From Candidatus Bathyarchaeia archaeon (GTDB lineage: Archaea; Thermoproteota; Bathyarchaeia; 40CM-2-53-6): DNA of 64,000 nt. Under the pieces are notes generated by a model that saw only the letters and a list, made by a program, of their open reading frames with translations, was not told where the DNA came from and ran no database searches. Location of the stretch: contig JBEKSC010000008.1 in assembly GCA_049517415.1 (NCBI GenBank), positions 1 through 64,000 of the forward strand. Direction: 5' to 3'. Every line of letters starts with the position of its first letter. Within the stretch, counting starts at the first letter, position 1. Below are positions 17,664 through 63,409 of this stretch, in pieces. The position numbers and the translations under genes are program-made.

Positions 17664-17725
17664 ACGGTTCAATTTGCGTTGCCCGCACCAGTAGACTCTC
17701 ACACACGTTTTTCAACGACGAACGA
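17664..17725 (+). repeat. Dispersed repeat family copy A
   Basis: acggttcaatttgcgttgcccgcaccagtagactctcacacacgtttttcaacgacgaacga; aligns by eye with the copy at 18813-18871. Confidence 0.8.
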
Positions 17726-17782
17726 TCATGTTCGGAATCGGTGGGTGTTATCGCTCCTTTCTTATCGCATCGTGAAGCGAAT

Positions 17783-18727
17783 CTACTTAGCACGTTTTGG
17801 CATCCAGAATAGGTAGTACATGAGGTAGAATGCCGCGATTCCGCTGAAAGGAGAGAATTTGCTTAGAAGTCGTCGAACTTCATTTGAGCCAATTCGCTTG
17901 CCTTTGAAATACGCTTGTGAGATTGCGCGTTGAATTCCTAGGTCGTCAGCAGGCAATGAATTCACCCTTCCCATGCCCCGAATCAACGTATATTCCGCAG
18001 TCCAAGGACCAACGCCCCTAATCTTGGTTAGCTCTGCAATCGCCGTCTCATCATCCATCCTCCTTAGACCTTCAAGGTCTAACTCCTTGCCTTCAACTTT
18101 CTTGGAAAGTTCACTTATGTACAATGCCTTATTCCTACTGAGCCCAACAGCCATCATTTGGTTCAGCTTTGCTTTCGCTAAAACCGCGGGAGTTGGAAAG
18201 GCATAGAAGCTTCTTCCCTCGAACTCCACACTCTCTCCATACTTCTCAATCAGGCGAGAGCGTACCGCTGCTGCAGCCTCGAGTGAAATCTGCTGCTCGG
18301 TAATGGCGATTACCAAGGCTTCAAAAATAGTCGGCGGTGAAACAGCTCTCAGCCCTCTGAGCTTCCATGAAACAATACTCATCAATCGGTCTTTCTTAAC
18401 AAACGAATAGAACTTGTCAAAATCAAACGAAGCTGCAAACATCGTATGCAGTAGTCTCTTCAATGCTTTAACTTCCTGAGCCAACAAACCTGGGTGAGCT
18501 TCCACGCTAAGACGTGGTTTTTCGATGGTTCCCTTGGATGTAACTAGGACAAGGACTGGATTCTCAGCAAGGTGAAGAACTCTTTTGTAAACACCGTTTT
18601 CATATACGTCTGGAAGGCTTTTCTCAAACCGACAGTGAATCCCCGCGCTTCTTTCAAAGTCGAATGGGGATTCGGGAAAAATGAAGAAACCTGTTTTGGA
18701 ACCAGTGATTCTGAGGGTCTTATCCAT
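17783..18727 (-). CDS. alkA: AlkA-family DNA-3-methyladenine glycosylase
   Basis: FEALVIAITEQQIS, AFPTP, HhH motif LTKIRGVGPWTAEY, PADDLGIQ. Confidence 0.92.
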   Translation of the reverse strand: MDKTLRITGSKTGFFIFPESPFDFERSAGIHCRFEKSLPDVYENGVYKRVLHLAENPVLVLVTSKGTIEKPRLSVEAHPGLLAQEVKALKRLLHTMFAASFDFDKFYSFVKKDRLMSIVSWKLRGLRAVSPPTIFEALVIAITEQQISLEAAAAVRSRLIEKYGESVEFEGRSFYAFPTPAVLAKAKLNQMMAVGLSRNKALYISELSKKVEGKELDLEGLRRMDDETAIAELTKIRGVGPWTAEYTLIRGMGRVNSLPADDLGIQRAISQAYFKGKRIGSNEVRRLLSKFSPFSGIAAFYLMYYLFWMPKRAK

Positions 18728-18791
18728 GAGTTGCTCGTAGCACGCTGAGAGAGTTACATGTTAAGTATTTGTGGATCTTGGCCACTTTAGT

Positions 18792-18877
18792 CGCACACAC
18801 TTCCTAGCGATTACGGTTCAAATTTGCCTGCTCGCACCAGCTGACCCACACACACTTTCTATGACGAACGACGACGG
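18792..18877 (+). repeat. Dispersed repeat family copy B (about 1.5 tandem units)
   Basis: cgcacacacttcctagcgattacggttcaaatttgcctgctcgcaccagctgacccacacacactttctatgacgaacgacgacgg. Confidence 0.8.
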
Positions 18878-19872
18878 CGGCCTTTTGGGGTCTTTCCGAG
18901 GATCTTACAAAGTTCGACGAAACTGCTTATGGCCAATGGAATACCCACTCCGAGGTAAAGCGAAGAGAAGAATATAGATTGGTCACGTTGTGTAACTAAA
19001 TTCGTAATCTGAAAATCAACTAACACAAAACTACCAGAGGCGTAAAGTGGGCTCGCTCTACTAATATCCCACTGGTACCACAGATTTCCTCCAGAGGCGA
19101 AAATGTTGTCTTCAGTCGGCGATGATTCAATTATGGCACCAGCAGGTTGCGCCACGTCCAGAACGTAACTCTCGCTGTCAAATTGGTTGAGAGGAGTTAC
19201 AGGACCAGGTACTATGTTCTAGATTGCAGGGCCGTAGTCGAACCGGTTGGTCAACTCGTATGTGGAGTAGGAATTCCGCAAGAGTGGCGTTTTAATGATA
19301 ATTGTCGCATTGAACCAAAAGAAATCATAAGACGTGTTATGATTTATCATACGATTTGCGCGAACCCAGAAATATGATAAGCCTGTTGCTTTGTCGAATC
19401 CCGGAGAGTAAGTAAAGTTAGGATTAGGATATCTGCTACTCATGCTTGTACCGAAAGAGCTCATTGGAGTCAGCGTCTTTTGCATGCTGAAAGATACATC
19501 CCAATCCAGTATTGTCGCAGAAGAATTGTATGGAATCTCAGCTCCGAACACTATCTGGCTCGAGTTGAACTGCGTTTTGAAGGAGCACGATATGGAAAGA
19601 ACTGCAGCGTTGAGATCTGGCCTTATCCCGTAGACCATAACTGCAACTCTTGTTGAGGTGATTCCGTAATTCCCGGCCAGAGTTGGATAATGTGAGGCGA
19701 AAATAGCTAACCCGTAAGATGAGGATGCAGGCGCATTACTAGGGAAGTTGAAAACGTTCTGTAGGCCCGTGGATCCACAGAAAGCAAGTACGATACCACT
19801 AAAGAGAAAAATGAGCAGGAGATAAGGCACTCTCCGGTTGACGACTCTTCCGAAGCTATCTATGCTAACCAT
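18859..19872 (-). pseudogene. Membrane-anchored extracellular protein interrupted by one in-frame TAG (19219-19221)
   Basis: ORFs 19219..19872 and 18859..19155 share a frame and the 63 nt between them are open (PAI*NIVPGPVTPLNQFDSESYVLDVAQP); N-terminal signal/TM and C-terminal TM. Confidence 0.7.
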
Positions 19873-20060
19873 CTAACCGAGACCCTGTTATTAGACCTGA
19901 ATAGTCCCTATAGCCACTAATGAATCGACCAGTGTCAATAACGTACGATTTAGGCTTACACGCCTACAATCATCCCCCAGCAGGAACTGCAATCGCCAAG
20001 CTAATTCAGCATGAACCGGGGGGGAATCTCAGCGTACACATGGAAACCCTTACGTGGACT

Positions 20061-20129
20061 TGTGGGTCTAGTGGTGCGCGCGCACACACTTTCCAACGAC
20101 AAACGACGACGGGTCGAATTTTGCTGCTC
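20061..20129. repeat. Dispersed repeat family copy C (composite of inverted and forward halves)
   Basis: tgtgggtctagtggtgcgcgcgcacacactttccaacgacaaacgacgacgggtcgaattttgctgctc. Confidence 0.8.
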
Positions 20130-20181
20130 TTACCGAAGTTTTTTATGGATTCATTACGCACCTTTAGCTGGGTTTGATGTA

Positions 20182-20448
20182 ATGAACATGAAGTTGATGG
20201 TTCTTGTTTCTGTTGTTGCTGGTTTGGTGATTACGCTGATCACCGGGTTGGTTGATGTGACGCCTATGCACCTGGTGGGTGCAACTTGGCATGGTTGGCC
20301 GCTCCCTTGGTTCTATGTAATTGTCTACCCAGGCTCACCGATCTCGGTTAATTGGCTCAACTTAATCGGTGATATCATCGTCTGGTTTGTCATAGTCCTC
20401 GCAGTTGCCTTAGTGATTTCGAAATTCAAGAAGACGTCCAAAACTTAG
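20182..20448 (+). CDS. Small two-TM membrane protein
   Basis: MNMKLMVLVSVVAGLVITL...WHGWPLPW...NLIGDIIVWFVIVL; the longer 20011 start would run through repeat C and is unlikely. Confidence 0.7.
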   Translation: MNMKLMVLVSVVAGLVITLITGLVDVTPMHLVGATWHGWPLPWFYVIVYPGSPISVNWLNLIGDIIVWFVIVLAVALVISKFKKTSKT

Positions 20449-20549
20449 GATGCATTCGAGGTAACGATCGGAATCCGCTGAGCCCATGGCACAATTCGTC
20501 CCGAGAAGGGTGAGGCTCAGAGAGGGGGGCAGGGGATTCTGACCCCAAT

Positions 20550-20741
20550 TTAGCGGTACACATAGCCTTGCAGTGAAGCAACGGAACAATGCGAGTTCAA
20601 ATTCCGATGCTCGTACCAGAAGGCGGCCCCTCCATCTGAGGTCAGGTCGCCCACTAAAGCCACAACATCCGGTCGAATTCTATCTACCCGTTCTTCGTAT
20701 CCTTCCCATTTCACAACATCAGAGAAGGCAAGTATCTTCAT
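20550..20741 (-). pseudogene. Truncated metallophosphoesterase (N-terminal motifs only)
   Basis: MKILAFSD...RPDVVALVGDLT then sequence degenerates and stops; no GNHD or later motifs. Confidence 0.65.
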
Positions 20742-20749
20742 CGAGCCCA

Positions 20750-21964
20750 CTAGGTCCAACCGCCAAGCTTCGTCATGACGGGTTTGTAGATGGTGAATTG
20801 GTCTTTACAGGCGTTCTTGCGCAAATATTGAAGGGTGCTCTTTCCAATCCCAAGGCGTCTTGCCTTGGAGCCGGTCAGTGCAAGAATCCTAGCTCGCACT
20901 TCTCGGTCATCACTCCTCTGCAGCCTCGGAGCGGGTTCTGCAAAATCAAGCGTGAGTGATTTCTCGAGTAGAAATCGGCCCAGCTCGTTGGTCTTCTGCT
21001 CAATAACAGTATCCCATTTCAGAACTCGGTGTTTGCATGCTACGCCAGCGTTGAATCGCTCACGAATGAGATCGATGAAGCGCTGCTTCGCTTCAACCTC
21101 GAAACGGTATCGGTAATCGTCCCCTGTGAAGTAGAAGTCGGATAGGTTCAAGGCTTCAGACTGGAATGCCGCGATGACCGAAATGTCAGATAGCCACCTG
21201 AACGGCTCCTGTAAATCATACACTAAAGACTGCTTTGTCTGATAGTCGCTGACATCATGAAAGAAACCGACCGAGGGTTCCAGGCCGACCGCGTTTATTG
21301 CTCGTCGACATTCACCCTCTAGGAAACCATAACCGTAGTTTAGGGCCAAGTTCACGGGATCTGAGGCGTTGTTCTGGTGGCTTGAAGTCATTCGCTCTTG
21401 GAAATCCAAGTGCTCGGGCATCACTTTCCCGAATGCTTCCCAGTATCTCCTAGCTACACGTCCTTCGACAGTTCGTAGGTCTGGCACTGTGGAGGCTCTT
21501 CTGAGCTTTGATGCCTCAAGCTTCGTTACTTGAATCTCCCTAGGAATATCATACCGCTCGGCCAACCAATCAAGAACTTGCAGACTCCTCTCAATTTTCG
21601 CTTGAACGAGCGCTCTGGCTATGCTGAACTTCTTCTTCGGATCGTTCGCAGCTAGAATTTGTGCAGCCCGCAGATCGGCCTTAACAGGCATTGGAGGCAG
21701 AACACTAGAAATCAGACTTCCATCGAAGTTCATGATGAAGACAGGAACCTTATGCTTCGACAGCCAGTGAAACGCTTGGAGAGAAATGTACCCACTGTGC
21801 CCATCGATGATGATGGTGCCGTAAGGGAAACGTCGCGGACGAAAACGGTGCGTAGATTCTGCTCTGTCATCTTCTCGCCAGTTGATGACCTCAAGTTCAG
21901 ATCTTGACTTGAGACTGTTAACGCGGATCTTGGCGCCCCAACCGGATAGATGAAGCGGATTCAA
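20750..21964 (-). CDS. cas1: Solo Cas1 of casposase type with C-terminal HTH
   Basis: MNPLHLSGWG, IIIDGHSGYISLQAFHWL, catalytic EGRVARRYW / GFFHD / LVYDLQEPFR, ASDPVNLALNYGY, C-terminal ARRLGIGKSTLQY HTH. Confidence 0.92.
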   Translation of the reverse strand: MNPLHLSGWGAKIRVNSLKSRSELEVINWREDDRAESTHRFRPRRFPYGTIIIDGHSGYISLQAFHWLSKHKVPVFIMNFDGSLISSVLPPMPVKADLRAAQILAANDPKKKFSIARALVQAKIERSLQVLDWLAERYDIPREIQVTKLEASKLRRASTVPDLRTVEGRVARRYWEAFGKVMPEHLDFQERMTSSHQNNASDPVNLALNYGYGFLEGECRRAINAVGLEPSVGFFHDVSDYQTKQSLVYDLQEPFRWLSDISVIAAFQSEALNLSDFYFTGDDYRYRFEVEAKQRFIDLIRERFNAGVACKHRVLKWDTVIEQKTNELGRFLLEKSLTLDFAEPAPRLQRSDDREVRARILALTGSKARRLGIGKSTLQYLRKNACKDQFTIYKPVMTKLGGWT

Positions 21965-21966
21965 AC

Positions 21967-22413
21967 CTAATGCCCTCCCTGTCTACTTTCATATTCCTTG
22001 AGCTTCTGGTCGGCCAACTTGCCTGCTTCCTTCAATCGTTGTATCTCTCTTTCAGTAGGCCTTGATCTCGTCTTTGTGTTTGCACGGGCCACTATTGATT
22101 GCCAGCGTTCGTTGAGATATCCTACAGCGAAGCTTTCGCCTACAGGACTTGTAAGGAATTCAACGAATTTATCGGGATCGACTGCGAATGCCAACACTAT
22201 TAATCCGTAGTTGCTGAAGCAAGATTTCCAACCTTTTTTCAACTGTTCAGCATCGAGCCAGTTCCTTTTCGCTGAGAACATACTCTCAGCGAGGAAAGCC
22301 GTATACCGGGTTGAGGACCAGTGGGTCAATGCATACTTTAGGTACAGCGACCTTTCGTTAACCATTGTCAATCTAGAGTACGGTCTCATTGCAGTTGACT
22401 CAGGAGTCCTCAT
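21967..22413 (-). CDS. Hypothetical protein directly upstream of cas1
   Basis: 148-aa ORF ending 2 nt before the cas1 start, suggesting translational coupling; no recognised motif. Confidence 0.5.
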   Translation of the reverse strand: MRTPESTAMRPYSRLTMVNERSLYLKYALTHWSSTRYTAFLAESMFSAKRNWLDAEQLKKGWKSCFSNYGLIVLAFAVDPDKFVEFLTSPVGESFAVGYLNERWQSIVARANTKTRSRPTEREIQRLKEAGKLADQKLKEYESRQGGH

Positions 22414-22744
22414 GCTATCACATGGCGATCCAATATCTTCGATGCTGAATAGCGCGTTCTTGCATCGAGTAATGAACTATCTCGCTGACTGGTCACCGTT
22501 CAAAACAAACAGTTATCCAAACGATGGTCTGAAACTGTACTCCGAGACAGGGAAAATGCTTAACGCCATTTTTGTGAGAGTTGCGGATGGCAAGACCTGG
22601 CACATTGCCTTTCATCTCAAGCCGGAAACGTCAACCGACGCGATCAAACCTGACATGGTCAAGCTACTCTCAATGCTAGCATCTTTAGGTTTGGTGAAGA
22701 ACCCTGTTGTGAGAGAACGAGTGGGTAAGAAACCTTGGATATGA
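22412..22744 (+). CDS. Hypothetical protein (3' part of ORF 22211..22744)
   Basis: Open frame; ATG at 22412 avoids overlap with the minus-strand ORF; no recognised motif. Confidence 0.35.
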   Translation: MLSHGDPISSMLNSAFLHRVMNYLADWSPFKTNSYPNDGLKLYSETGKMLNAIFVRVADGKTWHIAFHLKPETSTDAIKPDMVKLLSMLASLGLVKNPVVRERVGKKPWI

Positions 22745-22852
22745 TATTAGTGATAGACAGACTGAACAAGTGTGAGAGACCGTTCTCCGAACGAGAATGA
22801 ACCATCTCCAATTTTCTCCTCGACACACAAAGCGACGCTGCCAGAATTAGAT

Positions 22853-22948
22853 TCGGTCGTCCGTCTAGTGTGTGTGCGCACCATTAGACCCACACCCTTT
22901 CTAACGACGCTGGTCCAAATTACGACTCTCGCAAGCACTAGGTCCACA
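22853..22948. repeat. Dispersed repeat family copy D (inverted partner of C, about 1.5 units)
   Basis: ...agtgtgtgtgcgcaccattagacccacaccctttctaacgacgctggtccaaattacgactctcgcaagcactaggtccaca. Confidence 0.8.
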
Positions 22949-23168
22949 ATGAAGGAAAACGCGATAGTTGGACAGTTGAAATCACAGATAACGCAAATGG
23001 CGACTGCCAACTCTACAGGAGGCTGATTGGAATAATTTGATTGGATTGACGAAGAGTCTTACTTCTTCGCCGATTGCTTAGCGTAGGCCGCCAAACCACC
23101 ATCCGACACGCCATAATACTTAACCATTTGACTAAGCTTTTGCCATAAAGCTTTGCCAATTCAAAGCG

Positions 23169-24071
23169 GTGCAGAATTTCTTGGAAAATCTAACCTTTCA
23201 CACCTCAAAGATTGATAATTTCTCAGGCTTTTCAAAACCATTAGACGAGGCGCGCTACGTGGTGGTAGGTGTCCCATACGATCACACAAGTACATATCGA
23301 GCGGGGTCACGTTTCGCCCCACGAACAATTCGCGATGCATCATTGAACATTGAGACCTATAGCCTCCGAACGGCAATCGACATCGAAAACGTTCCAATAC
23401 ACGATGCAGGAGACCTGCATATAGTCGATAATGCTTCTGAAACACTCGACAGGCTAAAAGGGGTTACAAAGGACATTCTAGCCCTTGGGAAGATGCCAGT
23501 CATCATCGGCGGAGAGCACACAATCACTCAAGCTCCAGTCCGTAGCCTTCCGCACCCTGTCGGGGTTGTTAGTTTTGATGCCCACGGCGACCTGAGGGAT
23601 GAATATGGTGGCGGAAAATTATCCCACGCCACAGTCTTGAGGCGCATTACCGAGATTGTTGGGACGGATAGCGTTTTCGTATGCGGTCTGCGAGCCCTAT
23701 GCAAAGAAGAGGTAGATTTTATTGAACTAGGGAAAGTCCAGACGATGACGCCATGGGAAATTAGGGAGAAAGGCTTAGCCAAGGCGACGGAACGCATCAA
23801 AGCCTTTGCTCAAAAGTTCAAACACACATACCTTACCATAGATACTGATGTCTTAGACCCAGCCTTTGCACCCGGGGTCGCAAACCCTGAATTCGATGGC
23901 TTAACGCCTCAGGAACTCCTGACACTAGCCACCGCTGTGGTTGACGAAAAAATGGTCGGCTTCGACCTCGTGGAGGTATGTCCAAACTATGATACCGGCG
24001 TCACTTCCGTAGCTGCCGCCCGTCTTATCTTCGAAGTTATCGCCAAAGCAGAGAAATCGAGACAGCACTAA
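23169..24071 (+). CDS. speB: Agmatinase (ureohydrolase family)
   Basis: GVPYD, GGEHTIT, FDAHGDL, TIDTDVLDPAFAPG, DLVEVCP. Confidence 0.93.
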   Translation: MQNFLENLTFHTSKIDNFSGFSKPLDEARYVVVGVPYDHTSTYRAGSRFAPRTIRDASLNIETYSLRTAIDIENVPIHDAGDLHIVDNASETLDRLKGVTKDILALGKMPVIIGGEHTITQAPVRSLPHPVGVVSFDAHGDLRDEYGGGKLSHATVLRRITEIVGTDSVFVCGLRALCKEEVDFIELGKVQTMTPWEIREKGLAKATERIKAFAQKFKHTYLTIDTDVLDPAFAPGVANPEFDGLTPQELLTLATAVVDEKMVGFDLVEVCPNYDTGVTSVAAARLIFEVIAKAEKSRQH

Positions 24072-25384
24072 TCGATTCTTTGTAATTTCGCTATGAAGTA
24101 CCCATTGCATTCGTGTATGTGAGGGTAGAACCTCTGGCAGAGATCAAATCCCCTTAACCCAATGGAACCCAAGAACGGCACTTGCCGGACTACTTTGAAG
24201 TCTGGATTTTTCTTTAGAAATTCTTCGATTATACATTCATTCTCTTCTGGCAGGATGCTGCAAGTACAATAGGCGAGGGTTCCGTTAGGCTTGACGTAAT
24301 CCGATGCGTTCTGAATGATGGAGTATTGCCTCAATCCGTACTCACTTACGCGCGTGGGCGTGAGCTTCCATTTTCCGGCGGGGCTCCTTGCAAAAACTCC
24401 GCTGTTTGAGCATGGTGGGTCAACGATGACAACATCCGCGCTAGTCTTCAGGGGAAGCCTTCTCGCGTCAGCGCGGATGGGTCTTGCAATCTCGCATCCG
24501 CACCGCGCCATTTCCTTCTTCCAATACGCGAGTCTGCGGCCTGAAAGGTCGACCGAATAGATTTCGCCTCTATTCTGCATCTGGGCAGCTGCGTGGGTGG
24601 TTTTGTTCCCAGGTGCAGCGCATATGTCTATTACGATTTGCCCAGGCTTTGGGGAAGCGACGAGGCCGGCTGTAATGCTCGCCAAATCTTGCACAACTAC
24701 GTCACCTGATTTGATGATCCGGGACGGCTGACCTTTCATCCCCAAACGAAAGACGCCATCGACGCCTTCGACCTTCAAGCCTCCTAACTCTGCCGTCATT
24801 TCCGCTTGACTAACGGGCTTCAGTAAGTTTAGTCGGACGTAGGTAGGCATGGCATGCAAGTCCCGGCGCAGAATTCGGAGTGCAAAGCTTCTTCCAAAAA
24901 CATTCACTAGCCGTTCGACGAACCAAACAGGATGGCAGGTTTCCAGAGAAAGCCTTTCGAATTCAGGCAAGGGATCCTTGGTAACTTTTCTTCCCGCAAC
25001 GATTAGGGCGATTTGTTCCTCATGGATGCGGAGTTCCTTCCAACCTAAAATTTGCCGGGCCAATTCCACGTGACGTTCCAGATCGCTTTGGCGCGTCCCA
25101 TCAACATACTTGAGGTATGCGATAATTTTCAGGAAGCTCCTTATCCCGTGCGGAGTCCTCTCGATTTCATCCTTGGAGACTACTTGTGAAATCATATGGT
25201 CAATTCGGTTTTGGAAACGAGTTGTTTCCATGATGAGTCGGTACGCTTGGCGGAGTTCATTCGCTTCCTTTACGTCCATCTGGTCAGCGGCCTTGAATAG
25301 GGCGGTTCTCTCTCCGGTGCCTGCGTAAGCCATCCAGCTCAGGGCTTCAATGGCTACTGCGAGGGAATTCTTCATCAAGGCCAT
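24068..25384 (-). CDS. RsmB/NOP2-family RNA m5C methyltransferase
   Basis: QDLAS, DICAAPGNKT, VDPPCS, YCTCSILPEENE. Confidence 0.92.
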   Translation of the reverse strand: MALMKNSLAVAIEALSWMAYAGTGERTALFKAADQMDVKEANELRQAYRLIMETTRFQNRIDHMISQVVSKDEIERTPHGIRSFLKIIAYLKYVDGTRQSDLERHVELARQILGWKELRIHEEQIALIVAGRKVTKDPLPEFERLSLETCHPVWFVERLVNVFGRSFALRILRRDLHAMPTYVRLNLLKPVSQAEMTAELGGLKVEGVDGVFRLGMKGQPSRIIKSGDVVVQDLASITAGLVASPKPGQIVIDICAAPGNKTTHAAAQMQNRGEIYSVDLSGRRLAYWKKEMARCGCEIARPIRADARRLPLKTSADVVIVDPPCSNSGVFARSPAGKWKLTPTRVSEYGLRQYSIIQNASDYVKPNGTLAYCTCSILPEENECIIEEFLKKNPDFKVVRQVPFLGSIGLRGFDLCQRFYPHIHECNGYFIAKLQRID

Positions 25385-52605: not shown

Positions 52606-52677
52606 TGTTCAGGCCGGTCTAGACGAAATTTGTATGCGTATGTAATGCGCATAACAGAATTAGGGAGAAAATGAAAA

Positions 52678-55600: not shown

Positions 55601-57066
55601 ACGGCGATTCCGCACGCTACGCATTCGTGGGAGGACAAACCGCGGGCAAGAACGGATTCACTACAGCTTCAAAGCTTCTAGTCGACAGCATGTTCAACCA
55701 AAAGAGAGTCGTCTGGCCACTTTACTTTAACCAGGGCCAATACGACCTCGCAGCCTACACGTATGGCTACATACAAGACCAAACCTTCACAGCCTATGCC
55801 CAAAACGGCCAAGTTGCCGACATGCGAGTCAATTTGCTCATCGGCGTGAACCTAACTCTTGATATTCTCTTCAAGAAGGAGAGTATCATAACCGGCACGC
55901 CGTTTAACATGTCCGCACGGGTCCGCTTCTTCAACGACCAAAGTCAGATGGTTGCTGAATGGATGTCCAGCGAGGGCACCTACGTTGACCGCAGTGGTCA
56001 CGCGATCGCAGCCAACGGAGCGCTGCCGGTAGGCGGAAGTGGTTTCACGACTCCCTCCGACCCGCTCTACCCGTTCACCGACCAAGCGGGTTACCAGAAA
56101 CCTGCTTCTGGGCTACAAGGATACAACTTCGTACCCGGAAACACAACATTACTTAACGTCCTAACGGCTGGCTTACCGCAGCAGCCGCCCGCTGGAAAAT
56201 TCCTAAGCAATGAATACTTCAGCGACCCACTGCAAGGCGGTGGAGGAACTTTCGGAGACTGCGACTTCAACCTCTACTGTTACCCAGCCGCGCATGCTCA
56301 GTACCCATTCCCCAACACGGGAATCACAGGTGCTCCAGACTATACGGGTGGATGGACAGCCGAAGTCGACTTCGTCCCATGGTACGCCAACAACACCGGC
56401 ATCCAGGCCTTCGTAGGCCAGAGTGGCGCGACCAGCGTAGTTGGCACAGGGCCCTATCCAGCATACTACCCGCCGATTCAAGGGCTACTAATGGGTGAAT
56501 CGTACCACATCGTCCCAGGCACGACCGCAACCTCAGGCATCAGCCTGACAGAAGACACGGCAACGAATACATACGTGTCCCCGCCGGGCAGCAGCTTCGT
56601 CGGCCACAGCATGGCAGCGAACCACTTAGGCCCGTACTCGCAGGAAGGTGTCTGGCAGATCAGCAACGCTCACCTAAGCGGTGAAGCTAGCGGAATCTTC
56701 GAAGTCGACTTGAACGGCCTCGTATCAGGCAACGCTCTAGCGTTCACGTGGGCTAACGAGTTCCGGCCTTTGAGCTGGGCCTCAGTTAGCGTCGTGGGAG
56801 CAAGCGGTGCATCGTTTAACTTCTACACCTACGACGGCATCTACGAAGCCTACCTGCCACCCGGCACGTACAAGTTCACCATAAGCTCACCAAGCTACGC
56901 GGCTCAAACCTTCTCCGTAGTGATCTCACCAGGCCAAGCCGGGGTAGGCCAGAACGTGTACATGCAACAGAACAACGTACCAGTCCCAGAATTCAGTGGA
57001 GTAGCAGTTGTCGCCTTCTCAGCGTTAGCAGCTTCAGTATACCTACTCAGACGAAGACGCAAATAA
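52678..57066 (+). CDS. Very large secreted surface protein with PEF-CTERM-like tail (possible major envelope/S-layer protein)
   Basis: 1462 aa; signal peptide; G/T/N/Y/P-rich; many N-x-S/T sequons; C-terminal VPVPEF + TM + RRRRK. Confidence 0.85.
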   Translation: MHKKLAAALTIAIFLISTLAIVNPVQATFTLGNLTGSYPYDVNNFDPHVAGPVGYVWPGGGQAAYQGMLNSASNSMAPGYQSPYPSGNPPGAPASWYQLESDAYSPFGAPLTGSTGDLIFALNATCTPINWQPANLAACATQFDANGNGVKQAEIQTPLADTKGWDSWVILIPPEFNVPLYGAGEAQVATTITNNAADVGVYRVSPFDRYAPNYTAIYITADGTVQSEHKSDLGTNTVGYNHQFINFTSAGEFYYARINGVTAPKVAGKYFFKMLLVGNLASNGKINVGPTQAGAGTDAENPDVWVPPQNWPVMLVKGEVDPAIVTGTLRYAGYNASLYGQPIEEAGQVWAHMTTRLDPYTGAQRPDLPTVDAQAYVNATATGHYEVEGLAPGIYSLYASAAGYPQTLCASGITVLRGQSLHFDCYLQPGPVIHGQVFTKHQFGDEPWPGNLTTGSYIKIELYGAPTLSNLVDPSAGSPVSWSPLPCTAGGQEKYYGRRAAGLCGDPRDGSAIAFPWHEYSTDMNVVAQPPVGGTAPGYANGYTRDVSMTDVFGSTKLTSDPEGVGPPQKWFVQGGTTTPFAYEFGLKGEYGAPTDLSGEVPQVYATWINGLTPGRYYVRAWVFRYVQTALDGSIFQEYYFDITPNEWAGDVTLPLDLRLSSWVNKTVYFHDTSNTITTSPVHSGAGFLWGNLMGADGHVYAHNVTNLGYDDLYYSCAYDSNSNGRQDRNQKTFGTYTSIYTGVQYVGSGETGAPSMSCAGDSNQLNRAHTNADSLASGKAAIQFFGFNDTWGGEDYGIPSGTYTPNVATDGYYSPSPEQQVSVTLSGNPTSISDHLFLAPGFNVTVTSIDWERPSVARPWIWSGCQDAGANGLANGNGNAAHSNADKDSGCTGSEIDLGFYPVVNGTAGNIYDTIGDTSSYFYLPSSIPSTQLYQGPEGTDCLLGKSPAYTCTEMDGGGRNVLQYYQISHGVFYGDSARYAFVGGQTAGKNGFTTASKLLVDSMFNQKRVVWPLYFNQGQYDLAAYTYGYIQDQTFTAYAQNGQVADMRVNLLIGVNLTLDILFKKESIITGTPFNMSARVRFFNDQSQMVAEWMSSEGTYVDRSGHAIAANGALPVGGSGFTTPSDPLYPFTDQAGYQKPASGLQGYNFVPGNTTLLNVLTAGLPQQPPAGKFLSNEYFSDPLQGGGGTFGDCDFNLYCYPAAHAQYPFPNTGITGAPDYTGGWTAEVDFVPWYANNTGIQAFVGQSGATSVVGTGPYPAYYPPIQGLLMGESYHIVPGTTATSGISLTEDTATNTYVSPPGSSFVGHSMAANHLGPYSQEGVWQISNAHLSGEASGIFEVDLNGLVSGNALAFTWANEFRPLSWASVSVVGASGASFNFYTYDGIYEAYLPPGTYKFTISSPSYAAQTFSVVISPGQAGVGQNVYMQQNNVPVPEFSGVAVVAFSALAASVYLLRRRRK

Positions 57067-57071
57067 GCGTC

Positions 57072-57110
57072 CGAGCGCCCGAAAAGCGCTCGTACCCCTT
57101 TCTATTTTTT
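57072..57110 (+). terminator. Hairpin plus pyrimidine/T-tract terminator
   Basis: cgagcgc-ccgaaaa-gcgctcg followed by tacccctttctatttttt right after the stop codon. Confidence 0.7.
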
Positions 57111-57830
57111 CAATAAAATACGAGGCTACTGTGTAAGGAGAAGCTGTCCGGTCTGGGACGATTACAATTTCAATAGTTCGATTGCGTTTTCTCCCAGGCT
57201 CTTCTCTTTCTGCTGTTCGCTAATCCTCAGACTCTTAATGCGATCCACAGCATGGTACGATGTCAAATGGATTTCGTGTGGGAAATCTGTTACCAGCACT
57301 AGTTTCTCAGCGCCGGAAAAAGTATCCTGAGCCCATACGACGGCCGGCGACTTCCGCAGCTACGACTCAGTTGGTCACAACGCTAACGACGACTAAGAAT
57401 CCGCATCGGCAAGCACCAAGCAAGTTGGAACAGCCTAAGCCGTCTATGTGAAGGAATGCGCGATAGCTTGACGTGGCGCTGGTAGCGCCCCTTCGACCAA
57501 TGATAACAAAAGCAGGTAATAGTAAATGCGAAGAAGTTTCGCCTGAACATGTACATGTTCGCCAGGGAGTATGTACATCTTTCCGCAAACGGGATTGAGG
57601 TAACGTGGCCGCAAACCATGTACATGGTTACCGGCGACCAAGTACATCGTTCAGAGGGTTCGAGTTCGCGGGGCGGATTGGTGTCCCGTCAGGCGGGACC
57701 TAGATGCCATTCAAGTAATCATCTATGTGAAAGCAGAACCGGCACTCGAACAACAGACACATGGCCTACCGGGGGTGAATAGCGTTACGCATATGAGTAA
57801 TGTTGGCTATTCGAAAAGGTGGTGCTTTAG

Positions 57831-58598
57831 ATGCGTTTCGGTGGAAAAACCGCCGTAGTCACGGGGGCTTCCCGAGGAATAGGCCGAGCAACGGCCCTAG
57901 CCTTGGCGAGGGAAGGCTGCAACGTAGCCGTCAACTATGAGAAAAATAGTCAGAAAGCAGACGACGTCGCTAATGCGATCAGGACTCTGAAAGCACAAGC
58001 CATCGCAGTCAGATGCGACGTTTCAAAAAGGAGTGATGTTGAGGCCATGTTCAAGGCCGCCATAGGCGAGTTCGGGAAGGTGGACATCCTAGTGAACAAC
58101 GCGGCCATCGATTTCGGAACAAACATGCTAGAAACGACTGACGAAATTTGGGACAGAACTTTAGACGTGAACCTGAAAGGCGTATTTCTTTGCACACAAA
58201 TAGCCGCAAGATACATGGTGCAGAGAAAGTATGGGAAGATCGTGAACATCTCGTCGAACTCAGGATTCGGGGTCGCTGTCTGGGGTGAAACCGCCTACGC
58301 CGCGTCGAAAGCCGGCGTTATCCAACTAACAAAAACCGCAGCTTTCGAGCTCGGACAATATGGAATTAATGTAAACTGCATAGCGCCCGGATCAGTTCAT
58401 GCTGACATGCTCAAGGGGAAAATGACAGATCAGGAGTACGAAAAGTTTCTAGAGGCCAGGAAGAAAATAACTTCGCTAGGCATAATCGGCGAGCCCGAAG
58501 ACATTGCTGCAGCAGTTCTATTCTTGGCCAGCGACGATTCACGATTCATCACCGGCAAGACTATCCTAGTGGACGGTGGCAGAAGAGACTTCCTATGA
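57831..58598 (+). CDS. Short-chain dehydrogenase/reductase (FabG-like)
   Basis: TGASRGIG, LVNNAA, YAASK, NCIAPG, VDGG. Confidence 0.93.
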   Translation: MRFGGKTAVVTGASRGIGRATALALAREGCNVAVNYEKNSQKADDVANAIRTLKAQAIAVRCDVSKRSDVEAMFKAAIGEFGKVDILVNNAAIDFGTNMLETTDEIWDRTLDVNLKGVFLCTQIAARYMVQRKYGKIVNISSNSGFGVAVWGETAYAASKAGVIQLTKTAAFELGQYGINVNCIAPGSVHADMLKGKMTDQEYEKFLEARKKITSLGIIGEPEDIAAAVLFLASDDSRFITGKTILVDGGRRDFL

Positions 58599-58862
58599 GA
58601 GAGAAGAAGATCCACCCGATCTCCCATTGCTTGAGATTACATATCACACAAGCTAAGAGGCCACGTGGGCCTCTGAGGCGGCGGATTATATGGTAGTGGC
58701 GGCATTTGCCCTAGACGATTCGGCTTTTAACTCGTGCCGATGGTTTTTGATTCGATTTAGCATTGTCTTGGCTACCATCAAGAACCGCGACTGGTTTGTC
58801 ATGCATAATTCCAAACGGGAGCTGCCGAGTCAGGGATTGGGCCAAATCAGGACGAGTCTGCC

Positions 58863-59987
58863 GTGAACTTCTACATCACGTTGACGACCAATTGCAACCT
58901 CAAATGTAGCTACTGCTACGGTAAGTCCTGCGAGGATTTTGGTAGCGACTTCCATGGGCTTGAAGTCGACTATTCGCTGCCCAGTGAAGTTGCCTATGAC
59001 AGCGAGGTACTGCGGAATTTTCTGCAGAAAGATCGAAAGACCGCCCTGATATTCTACGGAGGTGAGCCCATGCTACGGTTGAGCAAACTGCGAGAAATCA
59101 TGAACACCGTCGAAGCTGACAGGTTCATCATCCAGACCAATGGCCTTCTGCTAAACAGGTTGGAGCCTGGGTACGTGAACAGGTTCCGATCGATCTTCGT
59201 ATCACTAGACGGCGACGAAGCGTTGACTGACCATTATCGAGGGAAAGGGGTCTACGGGCGAGTTGCGCGCAACCTGAGGCTGATTCGCGAGAACGGGTTT
59301 AGAGGCGAGGTTGTGGCGCGAATGACCATCGCGGAAGAAACTGAGATCGATACCCAAGTCCTGACGTTACTTAATGGCGCAGAGCTGCCGATATCATCAG
59401 TCCATTGGCAGCTTGATGCCCTCTTTTGGCAGAATGACTATTCGAAGCGACGGTTCTCAGAGTGGGTTAGGACGAGTTACAAGCCTCGCCTTAGGAGACT
59501 CATCGACTATTGGGTGCAGCACATGAAGGATACCGGCGAGGTACTGCGGCTCTATCCGTTTCTCGGAGTGATGCAGTCTCTGCTTCTCGGCGAGTCGAGC
59601 CAGCTGCGTTTCGGCGCCGGTTGGATTGTCTTCAACATACAAACTGACGGGAACATAACACCCTGCCCCGTCATGGCGGGAATGAAAGACTTCTACTTAG
59701 GGAACATTCGCGAAACGCACCCCGAGAGTCTGAGAAACGCCGAGTTCGTATCCGAGCCTTGCACGCAATGCCAAGCACTTCCGGCCTGCGGTGGGCGTTG
59801 CCTCTACGCGAATGTCACTAAACTTTGGGGGAACGAAGGATTCAGGCAAGTTTGCGCAACGGTCACCGACATGATAAACGCATTGCAGGCGGCACTACCC
59901 GAAGTAAGGTCCCTCATAGATAATGGAAGAGTTCGGCTAGATGCTTTTGACTACATGAAATACAACGGATGCGAAATAATACCCTAA
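58863..59987 (+). CDS. Radical SAM/SPASM protein (TIGR04084/AF0577-like)
   Basis: CNLKCSYC, YGGEP, QTNG, SLDG, HWQLD, DGNITPCP, CTQC...CGGRC, C-terminal GCEIIP. Confidence 0.85.
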   Translation: MNFYITLTTNCNLKCSYCYGKSCEDFGSDFHGLEVDYSLPSEVAYDSEVLRNFLQKDRKTALIFYGGEPMLRLSKLREIMNTVEADRFIIQTNGLLLNRLEPGYVNRFRSIFVSLDGDEALTDHYRGKGVYGRVARNLRLIRENGFRGEVVARMTIAEETEIDTQVLTLLNGAELPISSVHWQLDALFWQNDYSKRRFSEWVRTSYKPRLRRLIDYWVQHMKDTGEVLRLYPFLGVMQSLLLGESSQLRFGAGWIVFNIQTDGNITPCPVMAGMKDFYLGNIRETHPESLRNAEFVSEPCTQCQALPACGGRCLYANVTKLWGNEGFRQVCATVTDMINALQAALPEVRSLIDNGRVRLDAFDYMKYNGCEIIP

Positions 59988-60012
59988 TTCAAGAAATACG
60001 GGGTCTCTAGGA

Positions 60013-60675
60013 TTAAGTCTGCTTGACTGGAACGATCGTGGGGACACTAATGGCATCTCTGAGGCTTGCTAATTTAATATATGATATGAGCTCGTTCTTT
60101 TCGAGCGTCTCCTGTAGTTTCTTAGCAGCCAGTCTGACTTCGATTTCTGTCTTTGCACCTGTGATGACGAGTTTGCCGCTGGTGAAAATCAAGATGACAG
60201 TCTTTGGTTCATCCATCCGGTAGATGAGTCCAGGAAACTGCTCGGGCTCATAGATCGTCTTGGTTAGACGTTCTGCCACTACCTCCAAATCGAGCGTGCC
60301 ATTAAGATCGGCTGTGGCCACGATGTTCTCGATTCTAACTTCTGGGTTTCTAATTATGACTATGCCGTGAGTTCGAAGTTCGTTCGCTATCCTCTTGATT
60401 GCGGTCTTGGCCGACCTCTCAGACTTGGCACCTGTACAGACCATCTTGCCTGTACTGAAGAGTAGGCTTGATGTCTTTGGGCTCTTCAGCCTGTAAACGA
60501 GACCAGGAAACCTTTGCGGGTTGTACTCTGCCCGGGCGCTCACTTTCAGAATCGAATAGAGATCCAGGTTCTGACGTAACGCTCCCGTAGCCACGACGTT
60601 CTGAATCCTAACCTGCGGCTCTCTACTAGTTAACGTGCCATTCAACTCGCCACAATGAAGTCTTGCAACCATCAT
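60013..60675 (-). CDS. tbp: TATA-box-binding protein (start uncertain)
   Basis: Two repeats: IQNVVAT...YNPQRFPGLVYR...FSTGKMVCTGAK and IENIVAT...YEPEQFPGLIYR...FTSGKLVITGAK. Confidence 0.95.
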   Translation of the reverse strand: MMVARLHCGELNGTLTSREPQVRIQNVVATGALRQNLDLYSILKVSARAEYNPQRFPGLVYRLKSPKTSSLLFSTGKMVCTGAKSERSAKTAIKRIANELRTHGIVIIRNPEVRIENIVATADLNGTLDLEVVAERLTKTIYEPEQFPGLIYRMDEPKTVILIFTSGKLVITGAKTEIEVRLAAKKLQETLEKNELISYIKLASLRDAISVPTIVPVKQT

Positions 60676-61042
60676 CTGATGGTACTTTAGTTTTTACAAT
60701 AAGTAGATTAATAAATGGTAACTTATTAAGTGCTCTTCTATTACGTCGTTTCAACACCCAGAGTAAGGGCGCATCTCTTGCCTGAAGCCGCGTTTGGAGA
60801 ATTGCATTCTTGACATCTGACGCAGATCTTTACTCTGAGTTTCTGTTCCCTTAAAAACGGATTCCGAGCCGTGAAGTTCCAACAGAAAACCAAGACACGT
60901 TACATACGCGCGCACACAGAGAACGGGGCCCAAAGGGAACGGATTTGCATTTCTATTTCGACCCACCGTATTTGTCAGGTTGAGAGTTTCTCCAGAAAGA
61001 CTCCTCTCTGCTAGGTGAGCTTCATGGCTCCCTTGGGAGCAA

Positions 61043-61513
61043 TTAGTTTGTCTTGAGCGGAAGTTGTTTGAGCGCAGTGACAATTTCATGCGTGTGTTTT
61101 GTGACGTCGACGTCCGTGAAAATCTTAGCAATCTTGCCTTCCTTATCGATTATGAACGTCATTCTTTCTGCAAGCGAGCCGTCTTGACTCAAGACTCCGT
61201 AGGTCTTCGAAATCTGCTTGTCATGGTCGCTGATCAACGGGAAGTTGAGACTGTTTTTCTCGGCGAACTTTTTGTGGGATCCGACGGTGTCCACGCTAAC
61301 GCCTACAACTTCTGTCCAGAGTGCTGCTATCGATTGGAGCTTGTCTCTGAAACTGCAGGCTTCTGTGGTGCAACCTTTGGTATCATCCTTCGGGTAGAAG
61401 TAAAGCACTACGTTCCTCTTTCCACGGTAATCTCTCAGACGAACCCATGTGTCTTTGGACGTTTGGCCTTCGAAGTCAGGTGCCGTGTCACCAACCTTTG
61501 GCCTTGTTTCCAC
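61043..61513 (-). CDS. bcp: Peroxiredoxin BCP/PrxQ
   Basis: YFYPKDDTKGCTTEACSFRD, ERMTFIID. Confidence 0.93.
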   Translation of the reverse strand: METRPKVGDTAPDFEGQTSKDTWVRLRDYRGKRNVVLYFYPKDDTKGCTTEACSFRDKLQSIAALWTEVVGVSVDTVGSHKKFAEKNSLNFPLISDHDKQISKTYGVLSQDGSLAERMTFIIDKEGKIAKIFTDVDVTKHTHEIVTALKQLPLKTN

Positions 61514-61627
61514 TCGTAATCACTTCTCGGTAATTCGGTGTCTTCTGTCCATTATCTTCTTCTCAAGTTTATCATGCTTTAGCTTTGGAACCAACCTTGC
61601 CATGAAACACTTCCCTAGTTCAAGTTC

Positions 61628-61682
61628 AGTTGTGTGTGAGGTACCAATACTGCGCAAACACACTTTTTCGTGTAGCGCGACT
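61628..61682 (+). repeat. Dispersed repeat family copy E (degenerate)
   Basis: agttgtgtgtgaggtaccaatactgcgcaaacacactttttcgtgtagcgcgact; aligns with the reverse complement of 63343-63409. Confidence 0.55.
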
Positions 61683-61721
61683 GGTACACGCTGCAACGTG
61701 GAAGTTTACGTGTAAGGGTTG

Positions 61722-62771
61722 TTATGTCGTAGTCTGTTGGGTTGGTGCGCCGCTTTCATCAATCGCTTGGATCGATATGCCGTTTTGATTAATCACGTCA
61801 ATTACAGATGTCGGGACGGCCTGCTGATTGTAAATGTAGACTGGATTCAGCGGAGTTAGCCCACTGGTGCGTAGGATCTGTTGTCCCATTGGGCTGAGTA
61901 GAGCTTTGATGAAGATTATGCTCATGCTCCGGTCTGGACTACTAGATGGGATGGTCACGTCGTAGAGGATGGGCGCCCCGGTCACCTGTTTGCCATTAAC
62001 GGTCACGTTAACCTTTGCATACCAGTTTGCAAAGGTGAGGTTTGAGAGGTTAACTTGAGGTCCCGGATCGACGTATTGGAGTTTATGTGAAATCGCTTCC
62101 GAGGAGTACGACAGCACGTAATCTACCGCCCCTGTCTCTAACTGCGCGTCAAGATAGGTTTCTGTTGGGACTATCACCAGTTCCTTTGCTGCATTCTTCG
62201 TGTGGTAGATTTGATCGTAAAGGTAACTGGAGTTCTGATAATCTTGTAGTCCGGCTAGTTTCAGCATGAAAATTGCGTTGTAACCGCTCGGGTCAGTCTC
62301 TTTGTCCGAGACACCAACGATTACTCCCGGGCGAGTTATGATCTGATACCAGTTCTTTTGAGTAATCTCACTTTCGTATCGGCTATGGTTTGTGTAGAGT
62401 ACAGCCATCGAGTTTGAAGCAAAAACGATGTACCACGAAGCGTATTTAGGAATCAGTTGATTGGGAATTATGCGATAGTCCGCCGAAGCAAAGATATCGA
62501 ACGATTTGTTCGCCTGCGTAATCTCATTGGCCGCCAAGCGGCTGCCCTCGAAGATGTAATTGTAACTAAGCGTAGGATACTGTGGGCGAATCAGGGTGTT
62601 AGCAATCGCGTTGAAAGGCACTTGAAGAGTACCTGCAGCGTCTACTAGAAGAGTCGAAGATGTAGGAACCGAGTTGAACCCTTGGAAAAATCCGAGCGCG
62701 TATCCGACTCCCAATCCTGCAATTAACACCAGAATGAGAATTAGCCCACCATACTTTACCATCACACTCAT
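61722..62771 (-). CDS. wtpA: Tungstate/molybdate ABC substrate-binding protein (WtpA-like)
   Basis: AAGTL, EGSRLAA, DIFASADY, FASNSM, DPSGY, YSSEA, GAPILYDVTIP; N-terminal TM. Confidence 0.85.
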   Translation of the reverse strand: MSVMVKYGGLILILVLIAGLGVGYALGFFQGFNSVPTSSTLLVDAAGTLQVPFNAIANTLIRPQYPTLSYNYIFEGSRLAANEITQANKSFDIFASADYRIIPNQLIPKYASWYIVFASNSMAVLYTNHSRYESEITQKNWYQIITRPGVIVGVSDKETDPSGYNAIFMLKLAGLQDYQNSSYLYDQIYHTKNAAKELVIVPTETYLDAQLETGAVDYVLSYSSEAISHKLQYVDPGPQVNLSNLTFANWYAKVNVTVNGKQVTGAPILYDVTIPSSSPDRSMSIIFIKALLSPMGQQILRTSGLTPLNPVYIYNQQAVPTSVIDVINQNGISIQAIDESGAPTQQTTT

Positions 62772-62932
62772 ATCATATTACTTCCTGCATGGATCGTCCA
62801 GCACAATGATGTAAGCCTTGATAAGCGCGAACGCTTACGGTGGTAAGCGGACAAGACAGCCTAGTCGGCCTCTATGTGAACCTTGATAAGTTCAACAATA
62901 TCGTTTCGTTCCTCGTGGAGAGGCGGTGAACA

Positions 62933-63343
62933 TTGACACCTCGCCGCATCATTTTGACACCAAGGCAATGGAAGGTACTTCAACTCAGAGCAAGAGGATT
63001 AACTCAGGCTCAAGTAGGAAGCAGACTGCACACTTCACGTGAGAACATAAGCATCATCGAACACCGCGCTTACGCAAACGTAAGGGTAGCTAAGGCTACT
63101 ATTGCTGCCATAGACCAACTCTCAGAATCCGAAGAATTGATAATTCCAAGCGGTACCAGTGTCTTCGAGGCCGTGTCCATGACAATCCTCAGGGCCGACA
63201 TTTTACGAATCAAACTGAGAATTAATGCTGACTCTCTCCTAGCAGCGATCCGATCAAGATGTAAGGGAAGGATACGAGGACATCACCTAACAGCTGTCGT
63301 TAAGATTAGGATAAGCGAAGACGGTGCTGTAACGATAAAATGA
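62933..63343 (+). CDS. Tfx-family DNA-binding protein
   Basis: LTPRQWKVLQLRARGLTQAQVGSRLHTSRENISIIEHRA HTH plus IPSGT...AD C-domain. Confidence 0.85.
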   Translation: MTPRRIILTPRQWKVLQLRARGLTQAQVGSRLHTSRENISIIEHRAYANVRVAKATIAAIDQLSESEELIIPSGTSVFEAVSMTILRADILRIKLRINADSLLAAIRSRCKGRIRGHHLTAVVKIRISEDGAVTIK

Positions 63344-63409
63344 AATTGAACCGTCGTGCGTCGTCGTTCACGTAATGTGTGTGGTGATACTGGTACGCAC
63401 ACGCACAGC
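63343..63409 (-). repeat. Dispersed repeat family copy F (reverse orientation, near full unit)
   Basis: Reverse complement gctgtgcgtgtgcgtaccagtatcaccacacacattacgtgaacgacgacgcacgacggttcaattt. Confidence 0.72.

Follow-up and report, generated by a model that had tools for sequence, protein, structure and literature searches.

Do the short repeats that surround a solo cas1 gene in an archaeal genome mark the boundaries of exchangeable gene modules, and could the Cas1 encoded among them be the enzyme that works upon them? The question is raised by a stretch of 64,000 nucleotides (nt) from a Candidatus Bathyarchaeia archaeon (positions 1 to 64,000 of contig JBEKSC010000008.1, GenBank assembly GCA_049517415.1; hereafter the window), for which a sequence-only reading had proposed six degenerate copies of one repeat, A to F, standing at the edges of accessory genes, separated by gene-sized intervals and possibly serviced by the local Cas1. 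From the analysis reported here the repeats are best explained as re-used insertion or recombination sites, derived from the tails of tRNA genes, which seam the flexible genome of two genera; this account is held at roughly even confidence, whilst the part of it that names an enzyme is considerably more tentative.

Anatomy, tRNA-tail identity and distribution of the repeat

The genome containing the window amounts to 2.65 Mb in 59 contigs; its genes were called by longest-ORF (open reading frame) heuristics, the ORF set covering 87% of the sequence. A repeat profile, an nhmmer model built from 12 clear copies in this genome, returned 72 matches at E<=0.01 as against none in the reversed and none in the block-shuffled sequence, and the earlier expectation that such a scan would rise above a shuffled background was thus borne out. 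The exact core pattern, searched as a regular expression, occurs 11 times in the 2.65 Mb; with up to 3 mismatches 84 occurrences remain after merging of overlaps, compared to 19 raw matches in the reversed genome. Five of the six proposed copies (A, B, C, D and F) lie far above the controls, although A and B match by construction because both are seeds of the profile, which C, D and F are not. The sixth, copy E, is not a significant member of the family (nhmmer E 8.4 for 61631-61663). The housekeeping blocks, said to be free of copies, are indeed so: positions 1-17600 and 23000-63300 of the window contain no profile match at E<=0.01.

An alignment of 168 distinct cores, taken from this genome and from the loci of relatives, defines a unit consisting of TTCAAAT, a 9-nt gap and a 14-nt core, CGCACCA-NNN-GACC, with a (CA)n run, a short T run and often an ACG-rich arm (AACGACGAACGACGACGG) downstream. 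CACACAC follows the core in 142 of the 168 copies. Two types can be told apart by what precedes the core. In type 1 (for example, TTCAAAT-N9-CGCACCANNNGACC) the T motif lies upstream, as it does in 69 of the 168, and the gap to CGCACCA is exactly 9 nt in 67 of these 69; in type 2, also represented by 69 cores, a (GT)n run directly upstream replaces the T-loop part, often with an inverted arm before it, giving a palindromic composite. The remaining 30 cores have neither T motif nor (GT)n. The central triplet is variable, with TTA, CTA, GCT, GCA and GTA the commonest. The units are mosaics of modules of variable length, most of them not palindromic, and they stand alone, follow one another in direct stacks that repeat every 48-66 nt, or form inverted pairs at 51-71 nt from each other.

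The left half of the type-1 unit mirrors the tail of a tRNA gene, that is, the T-loop, nine nucleotides, and then the acceptor end, discriminator and CCA, to which the first 7 nt of the core correspond in real tRNA genes. When tRNA genes were predicted with introns allowed (aragorn -i), 5 of the 28 found in the genome ended in CGCACCA. In a relative, G011, an intron-containing tRNA gene predicted in the same way ends ...GGCGGC-CGCACCA and continues directly into CTG-GACC-CACAC, and a second tRNA-like T-arm and acceptor end in that genome, not called by aragorn, has two further tandem units downstream. The presence of the core at the 3' ends of real tRNA genes, with arrays of units downstream, points to an origin of the repeat as a target site.

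The family is restricted to two genera. When up to 2 mismatches are allowed, 20 of the 22 genomes examined in the same genus contain the core, as do all five of a sister genus in the same family, as against none of nine genomes from the three other genera of that family and a single occurrence in one of 24 genomes from other families; the reversed pattern, used as a control, gave no match in any genome. Both unit types occur in both genera. A description of the motif was found neither in the literature searched nor in the table of att sites and terminal repeats of the 2019 thaumarchaeal catalogue (supplement file 3).

Variable DNA and the breaks of homology

The repeats are confined to variable DNA. 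Although ORFs cover most of the genome, 44 of 50 cores are intergenic; the profile matches cluster on 13 of the 59 contigs, and 58 of the 72 fall in the terminal 10 kb of contigs, a zone which makes up 35.5% of the genome. At one end of contig C12 (C12:1-4700), units recur every 350-700 nt, with a single ORF between one and the next. The cargo of such islands, according to Pfam searches of 110 and a further 18 ORFs, includes TBP paralogues, GNAT, CMD, EamA, pirin and Lrp/AsnC proteins, together with luciferase-like oxidoreductases, methyl- and glycosyltransferases and defence-like ATPases.

Most of the evidence on seams is supplied by one genome, G014, the closest relative compared (93-94% identity on two probes of 2.2-2.3 kb), in which 20 core-centred loci were set against 20 evenly spaced control loci. 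Among 62 merged repeat sites, only 1 lies in shared DNA, whilst 17 lie within 150 nt of a break in homology and 44 in unshared DNA; the control loci (100 kb, 48% shared) contain no repeat site. Viewed from the breakpoints, 18 of the 50 internal ones have a repeat no more than 150 nt away, where random placement would give 7.9 +/- 2.5 (P about 0.0005). An empty site, of the kind that the sequence-only reading had proposed to look for in relatives, is also present: the TFS gene of G014 lies 48 nt from sequence matching C2:144098-160998 of the genome studied here, which at this site carries about 16 kb of island that G014 lacks. These comparisons support the earlier proposal that the repeats mark the boundaries of accessory-gene modules.

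Individual homologies end within the core itself. A 410-nt cassette common to G014 and to C2:166953-167366 loses homology directly after ...TTCAAGTTACGTGGCT-CGCACCA, and four paralogous blocks, 90-99% identical and each carrying a 37-amino-acid (aa) ORF for a CxxC...C zinc ribbon, all lose it at ...GCCCGCACCA. A block common to G014 and contig C47 starts just past the variable centre of the core. Among the in-register homologies collected between cores of different sources, a single one crossed the core and 12 were one-sided; in 11 of these 12 the homology starts or stops at a position from -16 to +25 relative to the core. Most of the 12 are family-level matches, and about four rest on unique flanks. 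Where both cores are canonical, the ends of BLAST alignments place a seam only to within the unit.

Some islands begin at tRNA genes. A conserved terminus starts exactly 14 nt after tRNA position 70 beside different tRNA genes in two genomes (at C3:128249 here and at L063:1922 in G014), the 14 nt beginning with CC. At both of these tRNA-side ends, neither a second copy of the 14-mer nor an inverted terminus was found nearby, and for the G014 island, which adjoins tRNA-Val, the far border was not found, the corresponding downstream DNA of our genome having no close match. The terminus itself (GGTTCCAGACCA..GTCTGGCAAATA; C3:128242-128335 and G014 L063:1915-1981) contains a small palindrome of its own, and a T-loop/core unit lies about 80 nt inward of it.

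Three further observations concern the edges of the units. In the zinc-ribbon blocks the stop codon of the ORF falls within the T-like part of the unit. A MITE-like element (MITE, miniature inverted-repeat transposable element) that is about 290 nt long and bears subterminal inverted repeats (ATGAAAAGTC-TAA) has inserted right after a core, between two CACAC runs (C47:8999-9298 into C50:7751-7625, C2:1-146, and G014 L056:4767-5075), and three different variable halves are represented among the cores beside it. Other elements, too, seem to use the (CA)n edge of the core as a point of insertion. Joints seen in contigs from public sequencing runs were rejected as evidence of excision, as their sides at the cores are 22-25 nt long and their depth is high, which indicates cross-matches between copies of the family; rare circles would in any case not show in such contigs.

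Candidate enzymes and rival explanations

If the repeats are re-used sites, accessory-gene modules would have been joined at the cores, either by insertion or by site-specific exchange, and the inserted DNA would often bring along a new copy of the site close to its end. Insertions made one after another or inside one another would then give rise to short tandem stacks of units as well as to gene-sized cassettes between units, and both would gather in variable islands, some of which begin at real tRNA genes. In the version driven by a casposase, gene-sized DNA and short end-derived pieces would be inserted beside the mimic sites.

The product of cas1 in the window, a family-2-type casposase homologue, is tentatively put forward as the leading candidate enzyme because the geometry of the site equals the published target rule of family 2. 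According to PMC6614799, the casposase of A. boonei uses the 3' end of tRNA-Pro as its integration site, requires a TCAAATC lying 9-15 bp upstream of the point where it inserts and gives rise to 14-15-bp duplications, whilst in M. mazei conservation within the 14-bp duplications is limited to the leader-proximal bases. Within the repeats described here, TCAAAT(C/T) stands at -15 to -9 of the core start, and the core measures 14 nt, of which the first 7 are conserved and the next 3 variable. The likeness covers the tRNA-gene 3' end, the motif and its distance, and the length and conservation of the target, although bases +1 and +2 are CG here and not CC, and the genome contains dozens of mimic sites away from tRNA genes, unlike the known family-2 targets. 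Only part of this likeness is independent of tRNA geometry, namely the 14-nt core length bounded by (GT)n and (CA)n, and the seams in the core.

On a sharpened case of the account preferred here, a solo Cas1 without the polymerase PolB would insert gene-sized DNA at the tRNA-tail mimics, with the T-loop part serving as leader and the core as duplicated target, and the result would be a cassette array akin to a CRISPR precursor; we regard this as doubtful. In its favour, the window Cas1 (Pfam Cas_Cas1, 1.2e-51; among NCBIfam models only the generic cas1 model exceeds its cut-off) is far nearer to 6opm (E 4.3e-69 over residues 36-403, the C-terminal region included) than to the other six Cas1 chains listed, at E 4.5e-21 or weaker, and 6opm is described in PMC6977970 as the casposase of M. 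mazei. A search of the genome gave no Cas2, and its two full cas1 genes and three C-terminal fragments (four Pfam matches and a fifth, C-terminal fragment) lie in or beside repeat-rich islands. Cas1 (PF01867) was detected in 11 of the 22 genomes of the genus and 2 of the 5 of the sister genus, compared with none of the nine from the other three genera, so that within the family it is found only in repeat-bearing genera (13/27 vs 0/9), a comparison between kin genomes that are not independent. Type-2 units resemble end-target-end junctions, and copies C and D form an inverted pair around cas1 (27 nt, 89% complementary, 2.8 kb apart), the core of C being inverted with respect to those of A, B and D.

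One relative, G017 (2.4 Mb), has 11 Cas1 matches, the five compared being 73-78% identical in protein sequence to the window Cas1; solo casposase homologues have expanded in this genome, no two of them sharing a context. In the genome studied here, the Cas1 fragment on C9 adjoins a weakly tyrosine-recombinase-like ORF (C9:18957-19538, E 6.9e-5).

The surroundings of cas1 are less favourable to such a role. PolB, which family-2 casposons possess, was found neither among the ORFs between C and D nor in 53 neighbouring ORFs scanned, comprising the 18 of the cas1 island on C3 and 35 within 20 kb upstream of cas1 at four loci in relatives. In pairwise comparison of 14 cas1 loci, the window and C3 included, shared DNA is confined to the ORF with the exception of one separate upstream block, and a shared mobile cas1 unit was rejected since beyond the borders of the ORF the cas1 copies are no longer homologous. 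In relatives, where 14 cas1 loci were compared, the closest core is usually situated 2-3 kb downstream of the gene, and at none of these loci is cas1 flanked by an inverted or conserved repeat pair like C and D, nor are there the conserved terminal inverted repeats that bound family-2 casposons. The cas1 module of the window lacks a direct target-site duplication, the flanks of C and D not being direct repeats. NitEve-C1, the sole casposon catalogued for Nitrososphaera, has ends unrelated to the core.

A number of results weigh against site-specific joining at the repeats, and against Cas1 as its agent in particular. Some single-gene indels end 20-100 nt off the unit (at loci L061 and L058 the borders are 45-100 nt away), or the other genome has a site without a unit, and at several other breaks homology is lost outside the unit at a distance of 15-30 nt. 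Only 2 of 65 cores in G014 have both flanks conserved in the genome studied here, and both orthologous cores are more diverged (79% and 74% identity) than their flanks (86-96%), which suggests that single copies are under no visible constraint. Neighbouring cores, 150-8000 nt apart, share their triplet in 10 of 66 cases, as against 9.1 +/- 2.8 by chance, so that the triplet identity which overlap-dependent recombination or fresh duplications would give is not seen; the cores of A, B, C and D all differ, those of C and D being inverted and not direct. A T motif at -15 to -9 would be expected of any tRNA-tail mimic. Within the genus, genomes with Cas1 carry a mean of 16.3 cores (n=12, the present genome included) and those without it 19.8 (n=11), although a Cas1 missing from an assembly is not proof of absence; Cas1-less genomes carry 42, 42, 34, 28, 20 and 16 copies. 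Among these are G011 (99% complete, 10 contigs), with 42 cores, 10 of them exact to the 21-nt pattern, and the near-complete G018 and G016, with 28 and 16. Other partners fare no better: Pfam searches found no integrase or transposase among 110 ORFs of the repeat-rich islands, and the Y1 transposase (PF01797; not found in the genome itself nor in 21 of 22 relatives in the genus), the tyrosine recombinase (no match in G018, 98% complete with 28 copies), TnpB (absent from three repeat-rich genomes), and the serine recombinase and IS110 transposase (0 of 5 genomes each) were all rejected.

The sequence-only reading had named as grounds for its own refutation that the repeats be equally common in genomes lacking this Cas1, and within the genus they are. 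Servicing by the local Cas1, in the form first proposed, is not supported, cas1 copies also lacking shared flanks and a conserved repeat pair and the triplets standing at chance level. That the local Cas1 services the repeats is possible but doubtful. The larger proposal, that solo casposases devoid of PolB target tRNA-tail mimics, the stacks and cassettes representing an intermediate between casposon and CRISPR together with gene capture run by Cas1, we consider unlikely.

The main rival, that the copies are passive repeats of the REP (repetitive extragenic palindromic) or MITE kind and that the seams arose by homologous recombination between dispersed copies, accommodates several of these difficulties, although it too is doubtful in our view. 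Intergenic repeats in both orientations, in short tandem and inverted stacks, with no tracking enzyme among the families searched, with orthologous copies that decay, with many breakpoints near the repeat and not at it, and with contigs that break at repeats, are all as it would predict. It does not readily explain a core nearly invariant across two genera while the arms vary, nor real tRNA genes which carry that core at their 3' ends and unit arrays downstream. Neisserial dRS3/RS mosaics and REP/BIME elements have a core of about 20 nt with inverted ends and segments of about 50 nt. They likewise form direct and inverted intergenic stacks near variable genes and breaks of synteny; the family described here differs in its tRNA-tail origin, its archaeal host and its tens of copies per genome. 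REP elements mobilized by a RAYT would call for the Y1 transposase, which was not found in the genome, and most of our units are not palindromic. MITEs, for their part, have a uniform length, terminal inverted repeats and flanking duplications, whereas the present modules vary in length and the copies show neither such terminal repeats nor such duplications, and self-BLAST of the genome revealed no larger carrier element with the repeats at its ends.

A third explanation holds that the copies are remnants of att sites of tRNA-targeting elements with tyrosine integrases, tandem integration and decay having left the arrays; this we judge improbable. The partial tRNA 3' end in the left half of the type-1 unit and the islands that begin at tRNA genes would fit, and in a study of thaumarchaeal integrase elements (PMC6563490), partial tRNA 3' ends border captured genes and re-use of one site in tandem builds arrays. 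The core can even be parsed, in our own reading, as 11-6-11 with imperfect inverted arms. However, no integrase was found by Pfam in 128 island ORFs (the 110 and the 18 together), type-2 units and tandem stacks free of cargo are unexpected from att sites, and the core is missing from those of the 2019 catalogue. G018, with its 28 cores, gave no tyrosine recombinase match; as an observation on that genome (5 contigs), the lack of any Pfam Phage_integrase match at E<=0.001 suggests that the lineage may lack any Xer-type recombinase.

That the repeats are cis-regulatory modules (promoter, terminator or operator) common to accessory genes is very improbable, for although they are intergenic, carry a T run after (CA)n and turn the arm side to gene starts (28 times) more than to gene ends (14 times), all four gene-pair arrangements occur at distances of 32 to 800 nt with no fixed orientation, tandem stacks are present, and orthologous copies decay faster than their flanks. 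The hairpin that the arms had been suggested to form, and with it a structured RNA, was rejected, since the single strands of copies A-D are no more stably folded than their shuffled versions (z -0.7 to +1.1), an advantage over shuffles being confined to fully palindromic composites in other places (z -4.3 and -3.0), and 125 kb of repeat-rich DNA yielded no Rfam family at the gathering threshold and no CRISPR-type match.

Two other systems invite comparison with re-used sites at tRNA tails. In integrons, attC sites separate gene cassettes of single accessory genes, and the integrase lies adjacent together with the attI/Pc platform. Single genes between recurring sites, seams within the site and a variable genome are common to both; in the archaeal islands, however, there is no adjacent integrase and no attI/Pc platform, the genes lie in both orientations, the window units fold no hairpins, and the sites are conserved in sequence and not in structure. 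With CRISPR arrays the repeats share a leader-like motif beside a short repeat, a Cas1-family gene nearby and, in the stacks, a period of 48-66 nt, but the "spacers" of a stack are all alike, the gene-sized intervals are irregular, and Cas2 was not found. Against family-2 casposons themselves, it should be added that no matching duplications were seen and that the repeats abound in genomes devoid of Cas1.

The window island and its meaning for the clade

The features of the window, and the coordinates of related features elsewhere in the genome, are collected in Table 1.

Table 1. Repeat copies, genes and related features of the window; positions preceded by a C number lie on other contigs of the same genome.
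Feature	Position	Strand	Parts and support
Copy A, type-1 unit	17663..17742	+	nhmmer E 5e-16; TTCAATT (T-loop-like) 17668-17674; 14-nt core CGCACCAGTAGACT 17684-17697; on the right, (CA)n-like run, T run, ACG-rich arm ending about 17731
Copy B, composite	18792..18888	+	nhmmer 18812-18888, E 1.4e-16; left, degenerate (CA)n and arm 18795-18814, TTCAAAT 18817-18823; right, core CGCACCAGCTGACC 18833-18846, (CA)n, ACG-rich arm 18860-18877
Copy C	20061..20129	mixed	minus-strand core 20065-20078; minus-strand part 20061-20090, nhmmer E 1.3e-3; plus-strand part 20081-20123 with (CA)n, ACG-rich arm and T-like part, nhmmer E 2.5e-5
Copy D, type-2 unit	22845..22948	+	nhmmer 22868-22925, E 3.3e-7; inverted arm and (GT)n, core CGCACCATTAGACC 22877-22890, short arm; T-like part and degenerate second core up to 22948
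Copy E, as claimed	61628..61682		(GT)n...(CA)n-TTTTT skeleton only
Copy F, type-2 unit	63343..63411	-	nhmmer E 2.7e-9; (GT)n-like part, core-like CGTACCAGTATCAC 63384-63397, (CA)n, ACG-rich arm, TTCAATTT
Repeat P with degenerate unit	20515..20625	+	P 20515-20571; degenerate T-loop and core-left part 20592-20622
Matches to P	C4:132391-132437, C4:129853-129904, C4:136598-136636, C1:854-902, C1:83336-83375, C12:73210-73248		
HhH-GPD DNA glycosylase (AlkA/Ogg-like)	17783..18727	-	sole gene between A and B
Frame of about 336 codons	18859..19872	-	split by in-frame TAG 19219-19221
cas1, 404 aa	20750..21964	-	family-2-type casposase homologue with C-terminal extension
148-aa ORF	21967..22413	-	directly upstream of cas1
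177-aa ORF	22211..22744	+	resembles C-terminal part of C3-encoded AAA ATPase
Stretch without counterpart in G014	17226..23113		
Cas1 remnants	C3:142340-142978, C9:17612-18217, C37:4670-4999		
Zinc-ribbon blocks	C48:8130-8261, C12:71895-72026, C4:133554-133675, C1:1-132		

The gene contents given in the sequence-only reading were recovered: the glycosylase between A and B (Pfam 4.6e-16, with the NCBIfam AlkA and Ogg models matched below their cut-offs), the interrupted frame between B and C, cas1 between C and D, and, to the left of F, a solute-binding protein and a TFX regulator, the stop codon of whose gene copy F abuts. The two pieces of the interrupted frame encode 217 aa and 98 aa and have neither a family match nor a paralogue; the frame may be a pseudogene or a case of read-through. 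The 148-aa ORF beside cas1 has no Pfam or NCBIfam match and no paralogue in the genome, and the 177-aa ORF, 32% identical over 145 aa (tblastn) to C3:135272-135700, whose product matches AAA_22 and AAA_16, is probably a gene fragment.

Homology with G014 stops at 17225 and restarts at 23114, and the intervening stretch lies where two variable hot spots meet. In G014 a repeat island containing cas1 comes right after the counterpart of window 59724-59990. The join between the two halves of the window island is uncertain, as 108 nt (20373-20480) are identical to the last 108 nt of C2 (174039-174146, reverse strand) and the unitig covering 20162-20480 has 1.3-2 times the depth of its neighbours in four public runs, pointing to a repeat with two contexts or a fork between strains. 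The window was found in 20 public DNA metagenome runs; RNA datasets were not listed among the public runs containing it. A variant of cas1 (window 20767-21268; 19 differences in 222 nt) is 1.7-6.5 times deeper in all four metagenome runs examined, which suggests a more abundant related strain or a paralogue in the same habitats.

At 20515-20571 lies a member of a second small repeat family, P, of about 50 nt, which is G-rich and then reads GATTCTGACCCCAATTTA..., and which matches its six other places at 83-92%. In other copies, and in metagenome contigs from the public runs, P stands directly upstream of a T-loop/core unit; in the window, the T-loop and core part that follows it falls below significance on its own (nhmmer E 2.1). 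Three TBP paralogues lie in variable DNA, one in the window (60013-60675) and two, at C12:14-583 and C50:3779-4453, in islands that bear the repeats.

What the family means for these archaea depends on how the seams were made. Even on the plainest reading it marks the variable islands and the breaks in assemblies, as seen from the crowding of matches towards contig ends, and the repeat provides a defined DNA substrate for tests of Cas1 in vitro. If the seams are the product of site-specific insertion, the clade would have a simple and previously undescribed means of collecting and shuffling genes at tRNA-tail mimics, which would help to explain how its flexible genome is built. Should the enzyme prove to be the casposase homologue, this would be a Cas1-family integrase acting on a leader-plus-repeat target with a cargo other than a self-replicating transposon, and thus a step which has been missing in nature from the scenario leading from casposons to CRISPR.

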